The position numbers and the translations under genes are program-made. A stretch of 60,632 nucleotides of DNA, counting the filler, from Bipalium vagum (Eukaryota), in NCBI GenBank assembly GCA_037834085.1. It is 3 parts of 3 records of this genome, joined end to end, with 100 filler letters (N's around TTAATTAATTAA, not from the genome) between each part and the next. Parts side by side here need not be neighbours in the genome. Positions count along the whole stretch, not along the records: positions 1 to 20,543 come from JBBMKC010250586.1; 2 more parts are not named here. One strand, 5' to 3'. How positions within the stretch are numbered: position 1 is the stretch's first letter; each line of letters begins with the position of its first letter. Shown here in pieces: positions 2,900-54,800 of the stretch. The notes under the pieces were generated by a model. The model did no database searches. It saw nothing but the letters and a program-made list of their open reading frames with translations, and was not told where the DNA came from.

Positions 2900-3602
2900 A
2901 GAAAAATTGTCAAAAGTCTAGATGTCAGTATTGGAACCGTCTCCAATCATATGAAGCAAATAGGTAGACAAAGAAACTGGGCACGTGTGTGTCACATGAT
3001 CTAAACATAAAAAACAAAATGAAGCAATATGAAATATTCTCAGAACTCCTTTTGAGGATGGAAACTCGTTGCTATATAATAATTGTAAACGGTCAACACA
3101 GTGATTAGACATTCGGTAATATCCCAAGTCCTTCCCAAAACTGAGTCAACGTAAAAAAATATAATAGTTGCGGTATGGTGGTGCTCAAAAGGAGTGATTC
3201 AATACCATTGTCTGGAAAAGGAAGAAATGATAAAAGGCCCAATTCTATAGCATGACGATATCCGTCCACACATAACAAAGCAAACCATGGATAATCTGAA
3301 AAGCCAAAATTATGAATTTCTACCACATCCATCGTACTCGTCCGATCTCACCCCAACTGATTTTCATTTTTCAAATATTTAAAAAAATATTTGAATGGAA
3401 AAAGTTTTGAGAACGAAGAGGTGCTGAAAATGTTCATTGTCTCCAGGTCTAGAAAATAGGAATGGAAAATCTCCCAATTCGTTGGCAAAAGTGTGCAAAC
3501 GCTAATGGTTTAATTTTAATCAAAAAACTTTTTAATCGGCTGATTTATACGGTTTTAAAATGAATATTCAAAAAACATGCAAAACTTTGTGAACAATCTA
3601 TA
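2900..3602 (+). mobile_element. Degenerate mariner transposase remnant
   Basis: HDDIRPH...EFLPHPSYSSDLTPTDFHF (YSPDLAP-D-type motif); multiple stops; TIR-like end near 3575-3602. Confidence 0.8.
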
Positions 3603-4629: not shown

Positions 4630-4670
4630 CTAACAATTATCAATATTATCAATATTATCAATATTATCAA

Positions 4671-4705
<35 letters not shown>

Positions 4706-5352
4706 GTTTTATGATTATTATTTTTATTTTCATTATTATTGTTATTAATACTGTTATTTTTATCATTATTTCTATTATTTTTATTGTTATTACCATTATT
4801 TTTATTTTTATTATTGTTTTTATTATCATCTTTATTATTTTTATTATTTCTTATATTACTATTATTCTTATTATTCATGTTATTATTCTTATTATTAGTT
4901 TTATTGTTTTTCTTAATATTGTTATTATTATTTCTATTTAGTTTTTTATTTTTATTATTATTATTGATATTATTCTTAATGGTACTATTTCTAATTTTAT
5001 TTTTATTTATCTTATTATTGCTGTTATTCAGAAGTTTATAATTATCCTTATTATTAATGATTTCAGTATTATTATCAGTAATTTTATAGACTTTATTAAT
5101 ATTATTTGGTATTGTTGAGTTATTATTTCTTAGCTTATTGATGACCAGTGAGTAATCCAATAACCCATTCTTAAATTTTGAGTCTCTTTTAATTATATTT
5201 TTTATGATTGGAGTGCCGTAAGGCCTAGATCTTTGGTGGAGGTATGGATTAGTCACTAGGGGAAGTGGAGAAGGAAAGTTAGGGTTAAACAAAAGAGCTA
5301 AGCGAGTGGGGGGTTGGATATAGAAATTAGCATTGTTATTATGAGGAAACAC
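4630..5352 (-). other. Pro-rich then Asn/Lys-rich low-complexity ORF of an unclassified repeat family
   Basis: NPYLHQRSRPYGTPIIK matches DPYYLNQRSRPNDTPIIK read on the minus strand at about 40420-40480. Confidence 0.45.
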
Positions 5353-5599
5353 AGGATAAATATGGGTAGGATTATTATACGGGGAAAAAGGAAAAAAATA
5401 AGGATAAAGATTTCTACTATAGTTATTATTTAAGTTCCTATTTAGTGATTTTAAAGAAAAAAAATATTCCTGTGATTATATATGGTATTATGATTTGACC
5501 TTAAGATTTTGCTTATAACGTTAAATTTATTAGAATTTTTATTTATTACATTATTTAAATTAATAAATAAAATATAGTAAACGAAAAATAAGTCCATCG

Positions 5600-6981: not shown

Positions 6982-17303
<10,322 letters not shown>

Positions 17304-18121
17304 GCTGGCTCAAAATCTAAATAATAAATTACGGTACAATAGCATGAAAAATAAGCCAAATCATAAATTTATCATTTCGCAAATATTTTGGTAATATTTA
17401 AAAATTGTCCTTGAACGTAATATTTTGAGGAAGAAAAAATAACCAATCATCATTCGATAAAGAATTTCCTTTCATCAATTTCATTGATTGTGTACAACAA
17501 TATATGGAAAAGAAATCGATAAATGTTGAGATGTTGAATTTATAAACAAGCAGTTTAATTACAATTCCAAATAATTGAATTAATTTAATCAAGAATCTTA
17601 CCTATAAAATGTTGAATAAAATAATAAAAGTCTAGTGACATTTTCCAAATTTCAAAATTATTGATATAAAAATGAAGTAAAAAATAAGGATTACTATATT
17701 TAATTTTTAATAACACACTGATTTTTTTTGTAAAGAACTACTATTACCAAATAAAATGGTTTAAAATAAACATAATTTAATTAAAAAAAATAAAATAAAT
17801 GAAATTTTAAAAATTGAAATCAAAATTCTATTATAATATTTATAGAAAAATTATAAATATAAAGAAAACAGAATTATAAATATTTTTGACAAATAATATA
17901 CAACATACAAATTTTACCAGAAAATCAAATTTGAAATGATAACAGTAAATAACCGAAGTGAATAAACAAATATTGGCAACCGTTATTACAACATATCAAT
18001 ATATATTAAATTAATTTTTATAAAATTAAATTATACTAATATAATAAAAATATTAGAATAATGATTTTTATTATATTGTACATTTGAACATAAAATTTTA
18101 GATATTTATTGATTGAAATAA

Positions 18122-18739
18122 AATGATTTTATTTTTTTTATTGAAAATTAAGTTAGCAAATTCTTTGTTTTACATTATTCAATCTCAATGGAGATTATTA
18201 TAGTAATTAGACTTTCAGAATGTACTATATAGTCTGATACATTAAATTGTCCAGTACAACAATTTCCAATTAAATAAATTTGTTTATATATCAGATTATT
18301 TCTAGTTGTCAATTCTAATTTAAAGTTTTGTAATTCATTTTGTTAAACCATGTAAGTGTTTTTTGCTTTAGCAAAAGGATGTGAAGTTCATTTTCCTCAA
18401 AATAATTCACTAGCTAATTTTTATGGTTTGAAATCAAGATGTATACTGAAGGAATTCATTATTCTAAAAAAGTTAATATTTCAAATATAAATAATATTAT
18501 GGTAGATTGTAATGTTGTAAATGGATCATTTTTTAATGGTAAAAAAAACAAATATCATTTTTGATTTCCCAGCAAGCACTGTTAGAAGAGGATATAAAAT
18601 TATAGAAAGACCAAATTTTCCAATTTATTATCCCGTACTTGTAAGGATGATTGATGATATAATTTTTAGAATTGTAGATGATAATGAAGAGTTAATAAAT
18701 TTTAATGGAGAATATATTACTTTTAGAATTCATTTATAG
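18122..18739 (+). pseudogene. Maverick/Polinton (adintovirus-like) minor capsid protein (penton), frameshifted
   Basis: KVNISNINNIMVDCNVVNGSFFNGKK/TNIIFDFPASTVRRGYKIIERPNFPIYYPV...IIFRIVDDNEELINFNGEYITFRIHL fits the Polinton penton C-terminal pattern. Confidence 0.8.
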
Positions 18740-18773
18740 CAGGTGTAAATTTTCATTTTATTTTTTTTTAAAA

Positions 18774-19484
18774 ATGAAGCTTTATTGTGATGATTTCTTA
18801 AATAATAATTCTGTAAAAATAATTCTAATTTACCAGAAATTTTTAGAATGTTAATTATTGGTCCTTCTGGATCTGGTAAAACAATGTTATTGTATAATGT
18901 TATTAAAGAAAGATTATATGGATTATAACAATTTGATTATTTTTACTAAAACTGCTTTTCTTCAACCGGCTTTAAAATATATTAAAGATTGTTTTGATTA
19001 TAGATTATCTAAAGAAGTTTGTCAAATGTTTAAAAATGAAAAAAATATATAAATTTGATGAAAAAAATTACACATAAATCCGAGAAATTAAAATTACATT
19101 GTCAGATAAAGCAAATGAAATTCAATCCCCAGATAAATTGGATAAAACTAAAAAATATTTAATTATTTTTGATGATGTAATAAATGAAAAAAATCAACAT
19201 ATTATGGAAATTTATTTACTAGAGGAAGACATAATAAATGTTCAGTAATATATTTATCTCAATCATTTTTTGATTTACCATTAAGATCAATAAGAAATAA
19301 TACAAATGTCTTAATTTTATTTGAAATTTCTCAAAATAATAAATCTCAAATTTATACGAAAATGTTATCACATTTTATTGATAAAGAAGAGTATGATTAT
19401 TTATTCAATTTTCACATGAATCAAAAATATAATTATTTTTTTATAAATTTAGAGATTAAAAAAATAGAATATTCAGCTTTTTAA
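18774..19484 (+). pseudogene. Maverick/Polinton A32/FtsK-like DNA packaging ATPase, frameshifted
   Basis: RMLIIGPSGSGKT (Walker A, 18860-18883), LIIFDDV (Walker B), YFTRGRHNKCSVIYLSQSFFDLPLRSIRNNTNVLILF. Confidence 0.9.
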
Positions 19485-19523
19485 AAGCAAATATATTTTC
19501 TAAAAATTTTTTTTCTTAAAAAA

Positions 19524-20484
19524 ATGGAAGAAGTATTAAATTACCATAGATACTCGAATATAAGTCGACCTCGTGTATGTCGAGGGGGAAAAATGGGAAA
19601 TTATGTGAAAAACCGTATGACTCTTATATAAGTCGAGGTAAAAATATGTCTGAGTAGTTTCCTCTTTCGTAAATTTGGAAAATAACATAAAATAACAAGG
19701 AAAAATGTCAATCTTTTGATACTTTTTTGCAAAATATTCGTGATAATATTTATATTTTTATTTACAAACATAGCATCATAGGTAACATTTTTTCAAAACC
19801 ACAAAATTCGGAATCCGAGTCTGATTGAAGAAGTTGCAATGCCTGCTCATTAGTCATATGGTCTGAATAGAAGTCTTCATCATCCGATTCGTCATAATCT
19901 TCGGCAGCGTTGGTGTCATGTATCCAGAGTATGTGGTCTTCATTTCCGTCCACCTTGTTTGATATCCCGGTCTTCTTGAAGCTGTATGAGATGAGTGGGG
20001 CCTCTATCGTCTCCCAGGCTGTTTTGGTCCACCCAGTGACTGTCAAGAGGTCTGGTCGTTTCAGGTTTCTAGCTTTGGTAGTCTGCGCTTGTCCAATGGA
20101 CATCCACGATGTCCATTGGTCTCTTACATGACACTTTAATGGTCGGTTGATGCTGACACCAAGTAGCTGGAGTATAGAAGTGAGTCCACCTGGAATGACT
20201 GCATAACGAAACATAAATGATAACCAGTATTCAATTATGAACACAACGTGATACATTGCATAAATACAGCCATTACATTTGTTAAAACTGCTGACTCTTA
20301 TATAAGTCGACCCCATTTTTTTCATCAAATTTTATATTCGAGTTTCTACGGTACGATAAAATTTATTATCATCGAAAAACAGCCTATGAGAAAACAGATT
20401 ATTATGAAGTAACTTTAGATCCAGAAACAATTACAAATTTAAATGATAATGGAAATTTAACATTTACACTTTTTTTCTAATTAA
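19524..20484 (+). pseudogene. Probable major capsid protein N-terminus, interrupted by a pogo insertion
   Basis: Removing 19544-20353 restores MEEVLNYDKIYYHRKTAYEKTDYYEVTLDPETITNLNDNGNLTFTLF; follows penton and ATPase; E..P...NLN..G pattern. Confidence 0.5.
19544..20351 (-). mobile_element. Internally deleted pogo/Tigger-family element
   Basis: TA-flanked TIRs CCATAGATACTCGAATATAA / TTATATTCGAGTTTCTACGG; VIPGGLTSILQLLGVSINRPLK...AWETI...SFKKTGIS. Confidence 0.9.
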
Positions 20485-20543
20485 GACTACGTCTCCGGCT
20501 GTAAACTTCCTTCTGGTTTCTTGACTTTTCAAACTTCGTGATT

Positions 20544-20643
20544 NNNNNNNNNNNNNNNNNNNNNNNNNNNNNNNNNNNNNNNNNNNNTTAATTAATTAAN
20601 NNNNNNNNNNNNNNNNNNNNNNNNNNNNNNNNNNNNNNNNNNN
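20544..20643. other. Assembly gap with TTAATTAATTAA spacer
   Basis: N runs flanking a six-frame-stop linker; identical structure at 40740. Confidence 0.95.
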
Positions 20644-22189
20644 TAATCAAGATAGCCATTATTCTTAAAAAATTTTTCTCTATTTATTTCCGTCTTTGGG
20701 TAAACATGGAATATTAACCATGTAATACAAAAACCTTTCATTAACTCACAAAATAAAGGAAGAGAACATGTTTTGATAAATCTATATATATTTATGATCA
20801 CATAAACAATAAATAGAATGAAACGTTTGTACAACAGTTAAATTTGTTTCCAAGCTCGACTTGATTATATTTAATTAAACACATGAATTCTTACAGACTT
20901 AGGACATTCTAAATAGCCCTTAATCTTCACCAAATGATGAAAATGATTAAATTAGATCAAGAAAAGGTTATTTTTAATTATACTTAAGTGAAAGCAATTG
21001 TCCCTTGAGTATTTACTTAATTGTTAATGTCATTTTATTTAAGCAATCCTGTTAAACAAGAGTGTCTACGGAGACTTAAATAATAATAATATTATTATTC
21101 TGGTAAACTGGACAGTTTACGGACATAATTTAATTACCATATTTTAAAGTGATATTTCTTGATCAAAATTTTTATGATAAAGTATTGGATAAATCTCATT
21201 TATTTAATACTAATAAATTTACTTTCTTCAATTCATTTTAGATTTTCTAATAATTTCTCTTCCATTATATTGCAATAAAATTCTCTATTTCGCTAATCCT
21301 GTAATTATTGACACGTGACAGTTGAATAGAAATAATTTCTGCAAAATTGATTTTCGATTGCAATTGTTAAAAACTATTGTGTTTAGTTTCTGATAGAAAA
21401 TTTTGTATTTGTATGATTTTTGAAATTCTCTTATAGGGAGAATGACATGACAACAAATTTTAGGTAAAAAATATTTATTTTCATTAAATAAAAGATATTG
21501 TTCAAAACATGATGGTGAGCTCAAACATTTTGAATTACTAATGGAGCATTATAACAATATCTTGGAAATTGAACAATTGTTGCTAATAATCAATTGTGAT
21601 CCACCTGGAGATCCGCCTAAGGATGGTGTTAGAAGATATCCGCGTCGAACTTAATACGCAATACGTATATGTAACAATTGGTTTGGAGTAATACAAGTGT
21701 TAAATTAGTTTGTTTAGTTTATTTCAATTTTTTATATTTTCCTTTTATACTAACGACAGTTACTACTAATAACTTTTCTTTTTTTTAATTGTAGTTCTTA
21801 TTTATAGTGAGTTAATTTTTCAGCATTTATTATTTAAATTATTTATTAATTCTTTGAGTACTTTAAAATTAAATATTATTAAATTTTATTATCATTTTTT
21901 TTTATAATTTTTCTCTTTTTTGCTATTATTTATAATTTCAACAAAATAACATATTATCTTTAAAAGTTAAAATAAAAATAATAATAATTAATAATGATTG
22001 GTTATAAAATATTATCAATAATAATATAAAATAAAAAAAAATAATTAAATTTTCTCCTTGTAATTTTTCTATTTTTCTAACAGGCTTACATTCTTCATGA
22101 CAACAATTTTTATTTTCACAAGAATCATCAATAAATATACAATTATCAGTATCACAATAAATTTTTATAAACTTCATCATTATTATAAA

Positions 22190-22490
22190 AATTTAGACAA
22201 CCATGAAAATAACAACCATTAAATTCATAAGTATAATAAGTTTTGTTCATCATAATAGAAAACATCAACTTTATATGTTTTATTATTAGCTCTAATTATT
22301 TTTCTCCTCCTCTTTTAGCATGTTGAATTTTTATTTTATCAATTTTATTTAAATATTCTAACCAATGAATACATATATAAAAATACATATCTCCAAAATT
22401 ACTTAATCTCGGTATTCCAATTTCTTCATTATTTATCATGGACATAAATATTTTTGTACAATTTTGTGCAATTGTTATATATTAAAAAAT
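22190..22490 (-). pseudogene. Protein-primed family B DNA polymerase fragment (Maverick/Polinton)
   Basis: ITIAQNCTKIF...CIHWLEYLNKIDKIKIQHAKRGGEK/...YKVDVFY...YEFNGCYFHGC; the IQHAxxGGE and YEFxGCxxHGC motifs are typical of Polinton pPolB. Confidence 0.8.
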
Positions 22491-22829
22491 CTTTTTTTAA
22501 ACTCATAACATCTGTTTAACAATAATAAAAAAATTGAATTTGAAAATTAAATATTTCGTTATTTTATATTTTTTCATCATGCCATTTTTTTAATTTTTTT
22601 TTCTTTATTATTAACGCTCATATAACTATAACCATAACGTTCTAAATCTGTATATTTACTAATGTATTAGGTTGTCACATATGAAATATCCGGTTTTAAA
22701 ACTAATTTTTAAAACTACTATAATTCACGTAATATTTAACGTTTGTAACTTATTTAAATATCATTTTGAAGCGTTAAATCTGGAGAATCAATATATATTT
22801 GTTTTAAAAAGTGAATTATTTAAAATACT

Positions 22830-23220
22830 TTTAGACCGCATGGGAATGATATTAAAAGAAATGCTAACAATTTTTTATACGAATGGAAATTAATACATAA
22901 TACATCATAAGCTGCCCGAAACATCAATTTCGCATCAATTAAGGAAAGAACTATTCGGAGGTTGTTCAAAAAATTCCAAAATGGTGATCTGACCAGGGTA
23001 ATTGAATGGTCGTCAATACAACGACGATTTATGAAAACAGGTAGTGCTAAAGGAATCAGTTCGAAAACTAGGAAACACGTTAGCCATTAGTCGTCAGACC
23101 ATTTTCCGACATTTGAATGAAAAAAAGTTCAATGGCTTCCTCATTTATTGAGTAATTCTCAAAAATCGCAGAAATTGAAAATTTGCCAAATACTGCTGGA
23201 TCGAAATGAAAAACACGTCT
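22830..23220 (+). mobile_element. mariner 5' remnant
   Basis: TIRRLFKKFQNGD...ISRQTIFRHL...WLPHLLS. Confidence 0.7.
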
Positions 23221-24297
23221 CCTAATGTGCAGGAAATGTAATATGCATGTTATAGGTTACGATGTGGAAATTAACTTAAAACCAATAGAACTCAAAAATA
23301 CAACTGACCTTATTATTAGAGACAATTTCAATAAAAAATTTCATGTACTTCATATGAAAGTACCATACTATATGGAGATTAATTTTTAAAATATTAGAGA
23401 TAAAGTTATATTAAATATAAGGACCTGAGCTTTCAATTTAGCTAAACCACAAGATTTTGGACATCACAACATAACTTACAAAGATAACGATAATAATATT
23501 AATAATTATAACATTAATAAAAATAATAATTTTACTACTACTAATAACAATATATTAATGCCACTAATAATGTAATATTAATAAAACAGTGATAATGATA
23601 ACGACAATTAAATTTAACTAATAATTACGATAAAATTAATATTATTAAAAATATTAAATGATAATAATGACAATAATAATGATAAGAATAATAAATAATT
23701 ATAATAATTAAAATTAAATTATTGCAATGCTCTGGTCAAATGAATACAATTACAACTTTATTACTCTTCCTTTTATCTCGGTATGTAAGCCGATTAGCTT
23801 ATACTTAATTAAGATCTTTTGATAGTAGACTACAGTTTTTATTCTTGTTTTGATTTTCTCTCGGTTTGCAAGCCGATAAACAAGTATAGTGTATGTGTTA
23901 TTTCACTGTATTCTTACGGTACTGTGGATACTACAACCAAGCCTATATCAACCAAACCAAGAGCCAAATCAGGAGTAACTATTTCAAAAATCCGAACTAC
24001 CAACCCGGATCAATCCAAGTCAAGGAAGCTAATCTTTGACACTGTGTATTAACATTATTTGTGACATTGTGTAATCATGATTAACTTCCTCCTTTAAATT
24101 TTATTTTCTCAGTGCAAAAATATATGTATTACATTAACATTATTCTTGATATTATGTGATCATTATTTCTTTTCATGTTGTGTATAATATTAGAAAAATC
24201 GAGATAAAATTAGCAAAATATATTTGCCTAAAATAAATATTCGCTGACAAGCGTTAGCAATATTAGAAAGAGCGATAAAATTGGTAATTAATAATCA

Positions 24298-24410
24298 AGC
24301 CAATCAGGAGAATCAAAGGCTGAAAATAGGACTATATAAACCCCTGTTTTCAGTCATAAAATCAGACAAAACTTTTATTCGGAGCGAACTGAAAAATTTT
24401 ACAAGGTAAT
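24298..24410 (+). promoter_or_regulatory. CCAAT plus TATA-in-hairpin module, copy 1
   Basis: CCAAT at 24300, TATATAAA at 24333 inside a 13-bp inverted repeat (24318-24330 / 24343-24355), donor-like AAG/GTAAT at 24406. Confidence 0.5.
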
Positions 24411-24889
24411 AACCCTTCGTAAAAAAAATATAAATTCAAAAGAAAATATAAATAAAATACAAATCAAAAGGACAAATTAATATATATAAATAAATATAAA
24501 ATTAATAATTCAATATAATCCTTTTAATATTACTTCGGCAATTAAAGAAATCATCGAAATTTTTTAATAATTTCCAATTTTTATTTTGTTGTTTACTGAT
24601 CAATTCTACTCTACTAACCTCTAGGGTTTAGAGTCAGATTTATTATAATTTAGGTCTCTTCGATTTTTCTATAATCAAGAGAGAGAATAGTAGTTTTTCA
24701 AATAATAATAATAATACCAATTATAAAGGAAATAAAAGGTGTGTTTTTCATAAGAATTTGGTGTACAAACTGTGATAAATTTAAATATATATATTTTTTT
24801 AAAATTGTTATTTTAGTTCTTTTCGTATTTTCCTATTATATTCACTTCTTTCTGAGAAGTTGGTGAGCTCTAGAAATCAAACGTCGTAA

Positions 24890-25695
24890 TTAAACTAAAC
24901 ACACCGAGGTAGTTTAAATACCCAACAGTAACAAAAAGAAAGTTGGCCGCAAAAATAAAATTAATAAGAGAGAGAATTTGTCAATAAAACGTTAAATAGC
25001 GCGTTTGAATGATCAACAAGAAAAGGTAAATTCCACAAAATTGATGAGAATTTTAAATGTTGACGTTTTACAAAGAAGGGTACGTTGTCACCCATCAAAA
25101 TCAGGTTACAAATACAAGAAAGCGACAAATCAAATAATTCTTTCAAAGAAGCACAAGCAGCTAAGAATAGGAACCACCCATGTGAAAACACAATCTTCAC
25201 AGATGAAAAAAGATTTACATTAGACGGACCAGACAACTGGATGACATACATGTGCCAAAAAATTTGAAATATATCCGTCAGAGGAGGCAATGTCACAGTG
25301 GTGGTTTAATGCTGTGTCTAATGAATTTTCCGAATGGTTTTTATTCATATAATAAACAATAAAAAAGACAAAACATAATTGATTTATATGGATCACTGAG
25401 AGCTCGTCTTTGCAAAGTCTTAACTTCCAAAGGGAAATTGTATAATATGTAATATTTTGTTGATAAATAAAAGGTGTGCGAAAAATTTTGTCCTTTCCTA
25501 ATTTTCAGTAATTGCATTTCTAACTTTATATATATATATATCAATATTACAAATATTATTTAAATATTACTTACTTTAAATTTATATAACTAATGTCTAT
25601 TACTAAATATCGCTTATGGATAGATTTCATTTCATACACACAGTAAAAAAATTCATATAAAATAGTAAATGTGCGAAAAATTTTGTCTGGCAGTA
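24890..25695 (+). mobile_element. Tc1 remnant with IR/DR-type end
   Basis: IFTDEKRFTLDGPD; GTGCGAAAAATTTTGTC occurs at about 25475 and again in the terminal repeat at about 25671. Confidence 0.75.
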
Positions 25696-26249
25696 TAGTT
25701 GTTAGATTTCCTTTTTTACTTCAGCGTGTTGATTGAGTTCTTTTTTTAATTAAATATTGTCAGTTCGATCAGTTATATTATGAAATGTTTTCATTTTCGT
25801 ATATTGTCATAAAAATAAATATTTGAAAAAAGCTTGAGTTATTTATAATATCTAAAATCTTTTTGTGATTGGTACATTACCTTCACATATACATTAGCGG
25901 AGTCAGAAAAATATTACCCTACCATCTTCAAAACCCAACACAATATTTTATAAATTTCTAAAATATACCTGTCAATATTTATTTATAATATATATTTCTT
26001 GTCAATATTTAATAATGAAATGTTATCAATTGTTATAAGTGTATTTCTATTTTCTATTTCAATTTATAAAAGAATATAATTTTGTTATAACTGATCGATT
26101 AATGAACTAAAATTTTAATAATTTTCAAACTGTCGAATATTTTAAAAATAGATTGCAGTAAATTTTGTTGTCATTTAAATATTTAGAATGTGAGTCAATT
26201 TTTAAAATTCAGAATTTTAACTGAATATTAGATAAAGAATATTAAATTT

Positions 26250-28479: not shown

Positions 28480-29400
28480 TAATATTTCAAAAATCTGTGG
28501 TTAAAAAATCGTTCCAGAATTGTCATTATCTATCAAGTGAAACTGTATGATAAAATTCTTTACAAAACTCCACTGGAAAACATTGGTCACAATAAACAGC
28601 AGAGATCCATTTGGTCGTTCTTTTTGCAAGTGCCTGATAAATCGATTCAGATGGAATGAAAAAGAATTGGTAAGCTGTTGAACATTTCCGTTTGTTGGCA
28701 TCTCTGATAAAGAAACCACACCGAAAACCTATTGAAAAAAGACCCCGAGAAGTGTTTTGCAGTGAAACACTATATCTGCTCAAAACTGTCGGCATGCATA
28801 AATTTGTTCAGAATACCAGAAATTTTCGTTGTTTTTTGACTCATCATTTTCATATATTTTTGAATTTTCCAAATCGTTCAAAAATCGATCACATTTAAAA
28901 TTGTAACCACTGATATCAGAAGATATTTTTAAACCCAAGAAGATACTATTCATTTTCGGAATATTAAGATGAGGTGGATTCTAAGTTGGTACTGAAATTC
29001 TAGTTCCAATCAGCATCAACTAACCATGACAACGATTCTGTTGTGCACTCGAGAATGTCGTAAACATTTCTTATATTATAAGTTAAAAAAGAGACCGATG
29101 CTAAATTGAATCCAATATAGCAATACTGTGATCGGGATCCCTTTAGCATTATGCGAGTGAAAGACATTTTGATTGTATAAATCTCCAGACATAAAAAGGC
29201 AGTGATTGCAAATAATAAGGAAAAGATAAAGAATGGCGATTCGATTTAGATTTCATACAAAGTACTCTAAACGCTATACACGGATCAACGACTGCATTCA
29301 CCAATGCTTCTCTACACTCAACAATTCTTCCATTGGACTGCAAACGATCACAGACATTTTAATCGAAGAAACGTTTATATTGCTTGGTTTTCCCCATAAT
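28480..29400 (-). pseudogene. Sec24-like (COPII) C-terminal pseudogene fragment
   Basis: DRLQSNGRIVECREALVNAVVDPCIAFR...FPYYLQSLPFYV and VFGVVSLSEMP...LNRFIRHLQKERP...LFIV resemble the Sec24A/B helical and gelsolin-like regions; several stops and frameshifts. Confidence 0.7.
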
Positions 29401-38757: not shown

Positions 38758-39600
38758 TCAACTAATGTTATTCATATCATCTTTCAAAATAGTATAGGAT
38801 TTACTAGAATCATTATCGTACAAAATAGCATATTTGTATTCATTTGTTCCAACTGCTTCTTCGTGTTTATCTGTATTAGAGAAATAGTTCAGAGATCCAT
38901 CATTATTCCAATTAGAAGATGGCCAGTAAGGCAGAGAGCTAGAAGCCGGAGTGCAATGATCGATGATTTTTACATTTAAAGAATTTAGCTGTTCAGGTAT
39001 TAATGAATTAGTATGTTCTTTAAGTATTGCAACATTTACTGATACTGTACTTGGATTTTCTATATATGTAACACCTGGTGGTCTATAATCGTAGTAGTAA
39101 AAATCATCATTTTCATTACCCTTTCTAGCATATTTTCCAGATCTAACATATTTTCGACTTGAAAATTGTTGATCTTGATTCAAGCGTCGATCTTTACCTC
39201 TTCGATTTTGAAACCAATTGCGTACCTTTTCTATTGGTAAATGTAATTCTTCAGCAATTTCTTCTCTTCTTTTTCGGTTAATAAATGTTGACGATTGATA
39301 AATACTTTCTAATATATCTACAACATGTTTTGATAGTCTATTAGTATCTCCAATTACAGGACTGGGTAAATTCTTTTCAAATTTAACATTTGGATCCTTA
39401 GATGATGTTGACATCTCTCTCTCCTTTGCTATCTGTTCCTTTGATATTTCAATTAAGTACTTTACTGATTCATCGATGCTATAATTTTTTGATTCTGATT
39501 CCAAAGAATAAAAATCTCTTTTATTTGGTTGTATTTTTATGGAATCATAATACTCAGAGTAATCCGGGTATAAATAATATTCTTCATAAATGAAATTCAT
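38758..39600 (-). CDS. Divergent homeodomain transcription factor, single-exon 280 aa (homeodomain about 39178-39357)
   Basis: Open 280-codon ORF in very AT-rich DNA; LESIY...RREEIAEELHLPIEKVRNWFQNRRGKDRR. Confidence 0.88.
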   Translation of the reverse strand: MNFIYEEYYLYPDYSEYYDSIKIQPNKRDFYSLESESKNYSIDESVKYLIEISKEQIAKEREMSTSSKDPNVKFEKNLPSPVIGDTNRLSKHVVDILESIYQSSTFINRKRREEIAEELHLPIEKVRNWFQNRRGKDRRLNQDQQFSSRKYVRSGKYARKGNENDDFYYYDYRPPGVTYIENPSTVSVNVAILKEHTNSLIPEQLNSLNVKIIDHCTPASSSLPYWPSSNWNNDGSLNYFSNTDKHEEAVGTNEYKYAILYDNDSSKSYTILKDDMNNIS

Positions 39601-40665
39601 GTCAGAATTTTAAAAATATTATGATTGATTTATTTAGTTTAAATATTCTAAGTATTAGTAATTATTATTTTTTAATCATATATCACTTTTTACATAAAAT
39701 AACTCAGAAATTCTAAATATATTTCTGTTGGTATTGATGATCGTAATAAACTTAAGATTGATAATAAAAATAAATTTGAAGTAAATTTGTATAAATAATT
39801 ATTATTATTTCCGAGGCCACTTTGTAAATTGGTAATTATTTCAATAATTTATTTAGAAGAAATTTAGGATCATGTTTTTTTTACCGGTCTGTTACATCAA
39901 GTCTCTTTTTTGACCGATCTCAATTTGTTCATGTTAATATTAAAGAAATAAATATTAAATGAATAAGCAGCATGGTGATGGGTATTCCATTTGATGAAAT
40001 TATGTTTCAAGAGAAAACAGTCGGTTATTCCTATTAGGTAATTTATAATAATATTTATATTAATATAATAAATTAATGTATCCATTAAAAAAAGCAACAC
40101 TATTTAACAAAACACTTCTTGACCATCTTCGTCGGAATATTTGATATTTCCACTTCATTTAAGTTTATCTTGGACATCATTGTGTATTTTCCTTTTCCTT
40201 AGTATTCCTATTTCTGTTATTACCTTTACTCTTATTCTTATTTTTTTGTTATTCTTAATATTATCATTTTTATTAATTTTATTTAGTTAGGATCGACCCG
40301 TATTACTTGAATCTTGGTTATTTAAAGTTAAATGAGGTTGTTTCTAATTAAAATTGTCAATTTTAGCTGCAGAAGCATAGCTCTTTTTCAACTTTTTTGG
40401 AGTTTGATCCCAAAAACCAGATTTTATGATGGGAGTATCGTTAGGTCTCGATCTTTGATTCAAATAATATGGGTCGATATTAATTAATTGAGAAAGAGAG
40501 GAAGTGGAGAGTTATAGTTGAAGAAAGGTGTCACATTTATGGGCCTTGGAAGATCACAAAAGTAAGTTACTGAAGACACGGTCGTTTCAAGGTCTGTTGT
40601 TATTAATTTCTATGTAGAAATGAGGAAAAATTGTGACATTTTTTTAAATTATTGAGTTGTAGCAA

Positions 40666-40739: not shown

Positions 40740-40839
40740 NNNNNNNNNNNNNNNNNNNNNNNNNNNNNNNNNNNNNNNNNNNNTTAATTAATTAANNNNN
40801 NNNNNNNNNNNNNNNNNNNNNNNNNNNNNNNNNNNNNNN
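40740..40839. other. Assembly gap with TTAATTAATTAA spacer
   Basis: N runs with linker. Confidence 0.95.
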
Positions 40840-50710: not shown

Positions 50711-51833
50711 AATAGTAAATTAATTATTCTTTAGGTTTCCTAAATAATAGTTTTAAAAAATTTTTTTATTTTTAATATAGAAAAGAACTAATTAAAATCT
50801 TTATAAATTTTAATATATTATCAACTATTATTCTTATTATCAGTGATATTGTTATCATTATCACTAACCAAGTGCTATTATTATTATTATTATCGATAAT
50901 ATAAACATAACCATTAATTGTTATTATTTTTATTTTATATAAATTTTTTAAGTTTTATAAATTATATAATAATATTTATTATAGTAATATATATTATTAT
51001 ATGTTTTATTTATTATTATAGTTATTATTTTATTTTTATTATTCGTTTTTATTTTAAAATTTAAAACTTAGTAATTATATCATGTATTTTTTGTTATTAT
51101 ATATATTTGGCTTATGTATGGAAAGTGAACCTTTTTAAAATATCGTTTCTTTTTATAATAATAAGTAATGCAAATATTAAGTAAACCAAACAAAAAAGAT
51201 AATTTATTCAAAATATTTTCCAAAATTATCTTTTAAATGCAAATATCATGTATAAGAAATTGTAATATTTTATTATACAGATTATATTTAAGTAAAATTT
51301 TTTTCTTCACGTATGTCCTGAATTTGAATTTTATATTTGTTATTTATAATTTATAATGCACAATCATTAATATATTTGATTGATATGAAATCAGAACAGT
51401 AAAATAAGTTATTATATTAAGTATTATTTTTAAAAAGTAAAATCGTATGAAATGATATGATGTTATATGACCTGAATTCTAAAACAATAGATTTTTGTCA
51501 AATTGTAACATGCATAAGATAATTATGGGATTATATCGAATTTTGTTCTAAATAAAGTAAAGAATGTGAAATTTGAGATATTTGATTTATGTAATTAGTA
51601 ATTAGTAAAAAATATTTATAAAATACTTAAATATTGTTATGATATCTAAGAAACATTGAGATATGAAGTTTAATTTGAAAGATTTTGCTTTAATTTTGAT
51701 TACAAGAAATATCTTTTGGTTTAATAAAATATTTTATTGTTACATTTTTATGTAATATTATCATGAGAAAAAAATATTTTTGAAAATTTTTTTATTTTTA
51801 TACAAAAATTATTTATTTTATTAATGTATTTAG

Positions 51834-54800
51834 ATGCCATTTGGCATAGTGACCTGGATTTTTTATTTGATCCTGACAATTGGCATGAAACATATATCCG
51901 TGATGAAAGCTGGCGAATCACATGGCTACTACGACCGCAATATTTCAATCTTATATTTTGTTTGATATGTTTGATAATGAAATATCCTGGAGTCTTTTGG
52001 GATTGTCACAAAGCATTTGCATTTACATTTTCATTTTTAATAACACTGGCCAGTATTCATATAATCATGGATTATAGCACTACAAGTGTTCTTATTCGAT
52101 TAGCTGCGAATCGCGATTTTCTGGCGGATAAATTGCAAATTACTTTCATCTCACCAATTTTCTTAATGATGTTTTCAATGTTAGGATCAAGTATAATCCT
52201 CATAACTTTTTGGTGTGTATTTGAATTCGGATTTCAACAATTCCTTGATAATTTATCTCGTTACCGTCATTTAATGGACCTTCAATGTGATGATTCTCAT
52301 AATGGCAGTAATTTATCTGAGTTTGCTTGCTGTAAACGAAAACATCTTTATTTGCGAGGATATCTTCCACATGTTGGTGGGATTTGTGGATGTGCAATTG
52401 GTTTCAGTATGAAAATTCCTCTTTTTTATGCTGGTATAAATATCATCTATCAAAACACTGGTGATCCAATGATGATTATTAATCTAGTCGTCTCCATTAT
52501 CTTTATATGCTTGTGGTTAATAACATGGTTTGGGTTTACTCTGAAACCAAGTTGGAGATTTTTTGTAAGTTCAAATTTACGAAATTTATACTCTACATGC
52601 TAGTTATTAAATATTTAGAAAAATATTGAATTTATTTAATTTGGTTTTATTGGTTGCACTCGGAAATTTTATAAAAATATAAAGTTGTGACGAAAGCAAT
52701 AACCAATTTTAATAAATACTAAAATTCAGTAACTCAGTAAAAAAACGTTATTAATCAAAATATAATCCTTTGAAATCCAGAAACCTCTGACTAGGAGAAA
52801 TAAGTATATTGGTGGCAGTACATCTTTACCGCTATATTTTCACCAGCGTTTTGAATGTTTTGATTGATCAGGCCAATTATGGATCACCAAACTGTCAACA
52901 TAACTTTTATGGTGCTAAATTGGTTTTGGAATTGTTTAGAAGCGTTATCATGTTTCTTAATTTATTATAGAAACTCATTTCTCATTGCTCGTCATTTGTT
53001 GAAGAAATTGATCATTATTGTTGTGCAAAAGAAATGAATATGACACTTGAAAACTGCGATTCCTTTGTTTTTTACACAAATTTTTATCAGTAATAAGTTA
53101 ACTAATAATTATTTATTTTGGACAATAAATAAGCTGACCAGTCCAAGAGTTCTCATATAAGTAACGGTTTCATTATCTTATCTGCAAAAAAAACATTGAA
53201 AAGACTTGGATGGGAGGTTTCACATCACCCACCGTATTCATCAGACAAAGTTCTGACTTCCACTTGTTTCGATCCATTTAGCATTCTCTTGCTGGACAGG
53301 CTTTCAATTCCTATCAGGATGTCAAAAAAAGGATGGATCAATGGATTGCTTCAAAGGATCAAGATTCCTTTTACTGGGGAATCCGTTCTTTGATCGAAAG
53401 ATGCCAACGGAAAATATTTTGACTGAAATAAATATTTTGTTAATTTTAAGTAAATTACTTTTTTCATTATAAAACGATGGGAATTAATTCTCATACCTAA
53501 TATTTATCTAAAAATTTTCCGATTAACTGTTAAAAAATTATTATAAAGAACAAAATAGATTGTTGATAATAATTATTAGCTTGTCTTATAAAATGTCCGA
53601 TCACATGATAAAAAAAGACAATGAAGCACATATGGGAAATTTTTTATTTACTTAAAAATTAAACACATTTTTACCAAAGTCTTCATAGGTTTTGAATACC
53701 TTTTATATGTGCTTTCTAGAAGTGATAAAGTCTGATAGACTTGTTTCGATACCCTCCGATTTGTAAATATTTTCTTGGTCAAAAAATTTGGAGATGCTTA
53801 AAGAAATGGTAATCCATTGGTGTTCAGGTCTGAGAAATAAGTGGGATCTTGCGGACTTTCTATTCGTAGATCAATTAGTTTTCTAGTCTTTTTGTGATAG
53901 TATATTGTTATGCAACAGAAATACTAGTTGACCACTGAAGGCTTACTTTTTTGTACATTATTTCTATATCGGAGTTGCATTTTTCGGCTGTAATAGTCTT
54001 GTATTATTCTGATCCACAAATTTATTTCTTTCTTTCATTTTTAGTAGAGTTAGTTTGCATCGTTTAGATTTCTCAGCTTCATTTAAATGTGCTCTTAAAG
54101 ATTTAATATTTCATTATTTAAAATTTTTTTAATTTTTAAATTAACTTTAAAAGGAGGCAATTTTAAAATAAATGACAAATTTTATATTTAGGGTCTAAAA
54201 ATTTGACTGTTTAGAGAGGTATTTTTGTTAAAATCTACTTATATATATTTAAAAGTAATACAAAATGACGTTATATGGAGGTGACTTTATAAAGAAGTTC
54301 GACTGTAGTCAGAAAGAAAAATGATTTGCACGAGGACTCAGCCGAATCACAAAATTTATATTACCACAAATCAAATTGAGTGGTACAAAGGGAAAGAAAA
54401 CAATAATTGAATGGCTAAAATAATGGGAGCAATCTTCTGAGGAGAAGGGTTAGAAATTTCTTTTAGCTGTTTTTTATAAATACTTTTGTTTTAATAATTA
54501 CTTGAAATAAAATATTTTTCTATCTACATGTACCTATCAACAATGAAGAAAAATAGTTCGAAATAATAAAAAGTAATTTCTCTAAAATCCATTTATTTGT
54601 AGATATCTAGTTCTAAAGGATTTTCTGACATTACATCGACTACAATTGCTAATAGTATGTCAACTATGATGCAACAGCAAAAATTACAATCACGTGATCA
54701 GATGAGAAATGATGGAGTCAATCAAATTTATGCATGTTATCATGGCATGAATCCATGTTTGGTAATTGATGAAAATAGACTCCGAAGCGATGACAGCTAC

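Follow-up and report, generated by a model that had tools for sequence, protein, structure and literature searches.

Results

Genes and features at the locus

Within the window, by which we mean the whole 60,632-nucleotide stretch of Bipalium vagum DNA (assembly GCA_037834085.1) that was analyzed, the region upstream of a G-beta gene holds the remains of a penton gene and of a packaging ATPase gene, followed by what is probably the beginning of a major capsid gene, into which a DNA transposon is nested (Table 1). The distance from the G-beta ATG at 17303 (-) to the ATG of the relic at 18124 is 821 bp in divergent orientation, which agrees with the figure of about 0.8 kb given in an earlier note on this DNA. 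The relic sequence continues up to the gap at 20544-20643, and the same 100-bp placeholder design (44 N, 12-bp spacer, 44 N) recurs in a second gap at 40740-40839.

Table 1. Positions of the G-beta exons, the viral relic and the nested transposon in the window.
Feature	Position	Strand	Evidence or remark
G-beta further exons	near 10037-11115	-	exon 10879-11115 matches G-beta-1, E 1e-39
G-beta first coding exon, ATG at 17303	17247-17303	-	Pfam WD40_Gbeta positions 1-20, E 2.9e-4
Candidate G-beta 5' non-coding exon (inferred)	17918-17991	-	GT donor at 17917; X3 contig block
Presumed penton 5' part	18124-18345	+	no profile match; summed depth up in bin 17987-18355
Penton (Polinton PX, minor capsid) pseudogene, 3' half	18346-18739	+	profile 61.3/37.6 bits; at least 2 frameshifts
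A32/FtsK-type genome-packaging ATPase pseudogene, full length	18774-19484	+	4 frameshifts, 1 in-frame stop
Presumed major capsid gene start, ATG	19524-19543	+	inferred from position, 40 bp past ATPase stop
Nested 808-bp DDE_1 DNA-transposon derivative	19544-20351	-	TIRs, flanking TA, Pfam DDE_1
Probable double-jelly-roll major capsid (PY) N-terminal piece	20352-20543	+	broken near 20470-20480; cut by gap
Gap placeholder	20544-20643	.	44 N, 12-bp spacer, 44 N

Packaging ATPase

The A32-type ATPase that had been recognized earlier from three motifs proved to be a full-length pseudogene. In the translation of 18000-20560, GPSGSGKT (about 18845-18868), LIIFDD (about 19160-19177) and RGRH (about 19221-19232) lie in three different plus-strand frames. 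The intact ENA protein P0001 (242 aa) matched the relic in four collinear tblastn segments (69-79% identity, E 1e-74), and a frameshift-aware alignment with this protein gave 166 identical residues out of 233 over 18774-19481; the frame is shifted near 18820, 18899, 19050 and 19217 and interrupted by a stop codon at 19075. Since these segments follow one another without a gap, in the DNA as in the protein, the interruptions are small frame breaks, and introns were ruled out as their cause, in line with the intronless reading proposed before. The Walker A piece passed the Pfam cut-off for Pox_A32 (24.1 vs 22.8 bits), P0001 is itself a Pox_A32 protein in Pfam, and five of the 40 candidates retrieved by the longest ATPase piece were Pox_A32 proteins, P0001 being the best. 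The A32/FtsK-type packaging ATPase by which Polintons/Mavericks are recognized is thus present in the relic. With P0001 as the query, neither metagenome nor viral contigs gave any locus, and the A2 and A4 queries found none in viral contigs. Weak ATPase-like matches at 3007-3105 (E 5e-4 to 0.02) were taken as chance, and the ATPase profile did not recover them.

Three of the four ATPase frameshifts are outside runs of at least five identical letters. Because only the fourth stands beside such a run (of 5), compared with 23% of background windows, the frame breaks and the stop codon are, as judged from the sequence, more likely to reflect real decay than homopolymer error.

Penton

Open reading frames (ORFs) of 230-270 aa beside the ATPases of fetched loci match the window at 18383-18745 (E down to 3e-13). 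A profile of 21 penton sequences matched 18356-18739 at 61.3 bits and, in another frame, 18388-18570 at 37.6 bits, covering profile positions 117-244 of 245, and hhalign returned a probability of 98.5% (E 3.6e-15). The penton carries at least two frameshifts, at about 18420-18447 and about 18541-18553, and one break is beside a run of 8. Of the penton proposed in the earlier note, the 3' half is accordingly well founded, while its supposed start near 18122 found no such backing, 18124-18345 giving no match to the 21-sequence profile (best score -1.8). Part of the latter interval is repeat-related, since the bin 17987-18355 has a raised summed contig depth. When the penton piece was used as a protein query, no homologues were found, and Pfam gave no match for this piece or for intact penton homologues. 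In the Atlas, the piece was near unnamed clusters (0.98) and the Sputnik minor capsid (0.93, 150 of 256 features, low recognition), which we treat as a lead only. By eye, the C-terminal motifs of the relic penton resemble the insect PX rows of Figure S2 in the available portion of PMC4028283.

The structural model of a penton homologue, L018 (pLDDT 79), had the mavirus penton 6g41 as its top match (E 3e-11), followed by the adenovirus and Sputnik pentons; the fold is common to all of these, with an identity of only 8-17%. The model also matched the minor capsids of PLVs, adomaviruses and MELD/adintoviruses. A fold like that of the mavirus penton, computed for L018, may be presumed for the relic penton, the 3' half of which represents the single jelly-roll PX penton of Polintons/Mavericks with its fold taken from the homologue. 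Matches of the pieces were to Polinton-type viral families (Pox_A32 and pentons) and not to cellular proteins.

Major capsid piece and nested transposon

To the right of the transposon, to which all capsid scores quoted here refer, 20355-20468 matched a profile of 13 Polinton capsid N-termini at 13.5 bits, or 16.8 bits together with the next piece, over profile positions 16-61. None of 2000 shuffles reached these scores, and the best of 6054 decoys from the same window had 11.9 bits. A profile of five full-length capsid sequences gave a non-significant match (E 3.6; hhalign probability 2.5%), and the piece found no homologue as a protein query. Because the matched positions are N-terminal and the strand and place are as expected, 20352-20543 is called, at most, a probable N-terminal piece of the double-jelly-roll major capsid (PY), the remainder of which is cut by the gap; the earlier suggestion of a probable capsid start therefore holds as probable and no more. 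All three frames of the module, for which frameshifts had been reported previously, were found to be interrupted, the probable capsid piece being broken near 20470-20480. The single strand proposed for these genes was also borne out, while their close packing does not simply hold for the third gene because of the transposon at 19544-20351.

This 808-bp element has 20-bp terminal inverted repeats (TIRs; 18 of 20 positions identical) with TA on both sides, and a Pfam DDE_1 fragment on the minus strand (19765-20331, E 2.2e-6) above the cut-off, so that a DDE_1 domain, short TIRs and a TA target duplication are all present. We take its subfamily to be pogo/Tc2-like. The transposon presumably sits inside the capsid start. 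It is missing from the earlier note, as are the gap end and the high abundance of the family. An internal 19-bp direct repeat occurs in the element (19618-19636 and 20292-20310).

Sequencing depth and abundance of the family

Contigs of three public sequencing runs were placed on 9500-20543 at 80% likeness, the summed depth of which is not equivalent to copy number. X1 includes contigs identical to the window, and the assembly itself may derive from X1. One X1 contig (14610-18255, depth 20.6, single-copy) joins the first G-beta exon to the first 130 bp of the relic without differences. The summed depth in X1 was 32-148 in the bins of 15035-17617, 5,597 in the penton bin and 35,616 in the ATPase bin, and that in X3 was 123,128 in the penton bin and 1,253,836 in the ATPase bin, with a G-beta contig at a depth of 326 that differs from the window at about 12% of sites. 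X2 contributed a small share only. Sequences related to the relic are therefore many in the organisms of both X1 and X3. The 808-bp element is abundant in X1, and its interior had no cover in X3, in which 20201-20543 had a depth of 5,240; this distribution agrees with a capsid piece that is part of the family and with a transposon that came in afterwards.

These contigs also bear on whether a collapsed repeat could have produced the broken frames or the junction during assembly, with the real copy intact or elsewhere, an explanation that we find barely conceivable. In its favor, the sequence runs into a gap, one penton break and one ATPase break adjoin the runs of 8 and 5 given above, and no X1 contig among the matches listed spans the whole relic. 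Against it, most breaks are outside long runs, in-frame stops are present, the relic contains a TA-flanked transposon, and host and relic are joined by an X1 contig that shows no differences.

Gene neighborhoods and kinship of the ATPase

An alignment of eight close ATPases retrieved at least 61 metagenome loci, and the penton alignment retrieved three viral loci. Among the matches listed for the 71 fetched loci, a penton was near the ATPase in 35, two or more of the three virion genes were present in 37, and an integrase-like ORF was found in 26, the rve domain being confirmed in L021, L042, L069 and L070. The neighbors in the penton-bearing public loci were A32 ATPases, rve integrases and double-jelly-roll capsids. 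The arrangement of the relic, in which the penton immediately precedes the ATPase on one strand, was found in none of the 35 comparison loci among the matches listed, the usual order being ATPase and then penton. In two Polinton-type viral contigs, a phospholipase A2-like ORF is beside the ATPase (L069:3411-4109 and L070:6857-7573), fused to DUF5679 in L069, and L055 and L030 contain repeated integrase/ATPase blocks within one contig, which are possibly tandem or rearranged copies.

The ATPase phylogeny that had been called for was inferred as a quick maximum-likelihood tree of 76 rows, which was midpoint-rooted, had SH-aLRT support values, no bootstrap and long branches, and left out P0004, P0007, P0013, P0020 and the matches beyond P0031. 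The relic paired with P0001 (99) and grouped with P0002 and P0006 (SH-aLRT 100), and this group was nested, separately from the IMG/VR ATPases L001-L007, in a clade of 60 rows (99) to which the loci carrying penton, capsid and integrase genes also belong. In this quick midpoint-rooted tree, the kinship of the relic ATPase is thus with integrase-bearing elements rather than with L001-L007. P0001, P0002 and P0006, the closest relatives among the sequences compared, are intact ATPases 60-71% identical to that of the relic; their frames are open, whereas those of the relic are broken, and these three relatives come without genomic context.

Discussion

Identity of the relic

We consider it highly probable that the locus holds the broken virion-assembly block of a Polinton/Maverick-type element, which was likely inserted just upstream of G-beta and has likely been inert since then. 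This reading builds on the homologies and frame breaks observed, on the TA-flanked transposon within the relic, on the unbroken passage from host DNA into the relic and on the abundance of related sequences in two runs, and the fossil Polinton virion module described in the earlier note thus stands, with its frames broken and its ATPase within an integrase-bearing clade. The relic has the PX penton, the A32-type ATPase and, probably, the PY capsid in common with Polintons/Mavericks (class Polintoviricetes), and the placement of the penton one gene from the capsid gene is the commoner one in the available text of PMC4028283. It differs from Polintons in being only approximately 2 kb of decayed sequence in which neither a protein-primed family B polymerase (pPolB), integrase, protease, TIR nor target-site duplication was found.

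The search for these genes covered a partial, gap-ended relic. No RVE integrase was found in the window using rve-confirmed ORF queries, or by Pfam on 123 ORFs (at least 45 aa) in 11200-33000, and the same 123 ORFs contained no Pfam match to a pPolB or a cysteine protease. The rest of the window likewise yielded no capsid, integrase or other Polinton gene. In 14000-26000, the relic is not flanked by a long inverted repeat, its ends being lost or in the gap; in the part of PMC10748475 available, Polintons are recognized by TIRs of 100-1500 bp and a target-site duplication of 5-8 bp. Since the integrase, polymerase, protease and terminal repeat were not found, Polinton membership rests on the virion module and the kinship of the ATPase. 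Split or fragmented Polinton copies are common (PMC4028283 Table S1), and fragmented Polinton ORFs are routine (PMC10748475), as far as the available portions of these sources go.

Adintoviruses (alpha/beta; cf. Starrett 2021) were also named in connection with this locus. Membership of that group depends on the type of pPolB, the integrase and accessory genes, and the relic is without those genes.

The missing genes also leave room for another origin, which we regard as improbable: the capsid block may have been spread to high copy by a non-autonomous Polinton derivative with internal deletions, or by a related integrating virus that lacks pPolB and integrase. Such a cassette would suit a relic that begins directly at the penton with no replication or integration genes nearby, an ATPase bin with 6-10 times the depth of the penton bin in X1 and X3, and a gene order unlike that of the 35 comparison loci among the matches listed. 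Against it, the tree places the relic ATPase with those of loci that carry an integrase, capsid, ATPase and protease genes tend to disappear together from non-autonomous elements rather than being kept in the available text of Krupovic 2014 (PMC4028283), and uneven depth can reflect better conservation of the ATPase at the 80% cut-off.

The history of the Polinton copy may be outlined as follows. It would have been integrated upstream of G-beta by its own integrase, after which the part upstream of the penton may have been lost; the DDE_1 transposon would have arrived later than the Polinton, the relic would have undergone neutral decay, and the remainder of the element may be in the gap or deleted. 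In an intact element, the ATPase would pump the DNA into a shell built of major-capsid trimers and closed by pentons at its vertices, according to the part of Krupovic 2014 (PMC4028283) available. Because all three frames are interrupted in the relic, no working protein is expected from it.

Elements of this kind are already on record, and in large numbers, in planarians and other animals. The four Schmidtea mediterranea entries Polinton1_SM, Polinton-1_SM, Polinton2_SM and Polinton-2_SM all have a penton and an ATPase, and three of them have a capsid (PMC4028283 Table S1), a likeness to the relic that concerns the listed gene content. A clear DNA/Maverick expansion was described for Dugesia in the available portion of a preprint (bioRxiv 10.64898/2025.12.11.693146), and the high-copy family of the relic in an AT-rich animal genome fits that expansion. 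The AT-richness of the window, its many mariner-like remnants and the high copy of the family suit a planarian host without proving one. A literature search that was not specific to this locus found no study of planarian Polinton lineages or of a relic beside G-beta, and the available main text of PMC11410931 makes no mention of Polinton/Maverick. The relic is most likely one inert copy of an abundant family and, as such, an ordinary find, which is useful as a marker of this high-copy family and for annotation of the G-beta locus and otherwise matters little.

Proximity to G-beta

The GT donor-like site at 17917 is one of two occurrences of GT[AG]A[GA] in 17306-18120, and an X3 contig with the depth of the X3 G-beta contig skips 17506-17920 and resumes its match at 17921. 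Since this X3 block starts beside the donor-like site, a G-beta 5' non-coding exon may lie at 17918-17991, approximately 130 bp from the presumed penton start. The X3-conserved blocks at 17393-17505, 17601 and 17918-17991, together with the two donor-like sites, mark one or two candidate 5' non-coding exons of G-beta. A sigma-70 promoter scan returned chance counts, its model being unsuited to eukaryotes.

The closeness of the relic to this likely exon would favor its being co-opted or incidental regulatory DNA for G-beta, either as part of a head-to-head promoter or as a piRNA/heterochromatin target, and SMEDWI-2 targets and silences the Polintons of S. mediterranea, with changes in chromatin, as stated in the part of PMC8532177 available. 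We nevertheless hold such a role to be highly improbable because the window is full of other decayed transposons, so that proximity to a gene is expected by chance, and the exon itself is only a candidate. A promoter-side position might change G-beta expression and, if this is true, would matter more than the marker value of the relic; in S. mediterranea, Gbeta1-4a is required for regeneration and survival according to the available text of PMC10078920, a fact on the gene of that species. We judge it very unlikely that the relic belongs to a lineage of animal Polintons that is little described, massively amplified and marked by a penton-ATPase-capsid order of its own and by members with intact genes, and that this copy, head-to-head with the first G-beta exon at about 130 bp, acts on G-beta transcription by way of common promoter DNA or chromatin guided by piRNAs. 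The lineage of the relic, which is set apart by the 60-71% identity to three ATPases and by the unusual gene order, might prove to be an undescribed group of animal Polintons with intact capsid genes, and would then bear on whether Polintons form particles.

Other features of the window

The first intron of G-beta (6 kb) contains decayed Tc1/mariner-like transposase pieces in 11200-15000, among which Transposase_1 was identified at 12033-12170 by Pfam and the others by eye, and depth is raised over 11200-15000 in X1 and X3. Two long open frames had no Pfam match, namely, an Asn-rich low-complexity frame of 281 codons at 4633-5475 (-) and a hydrophobic frame of 278 codons at 51767-52600 (+), for which there was also no Atlas match above 0.78. 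A Sec23/Sec24 helical-domain exon of another host gene is present at 29152-29358 (-; Pfam E 3.2e-6), and a divergent homeodomain is encoded in an open frame of 283 codons at 38761-39609 (-; Pfam E 8.7e-14).
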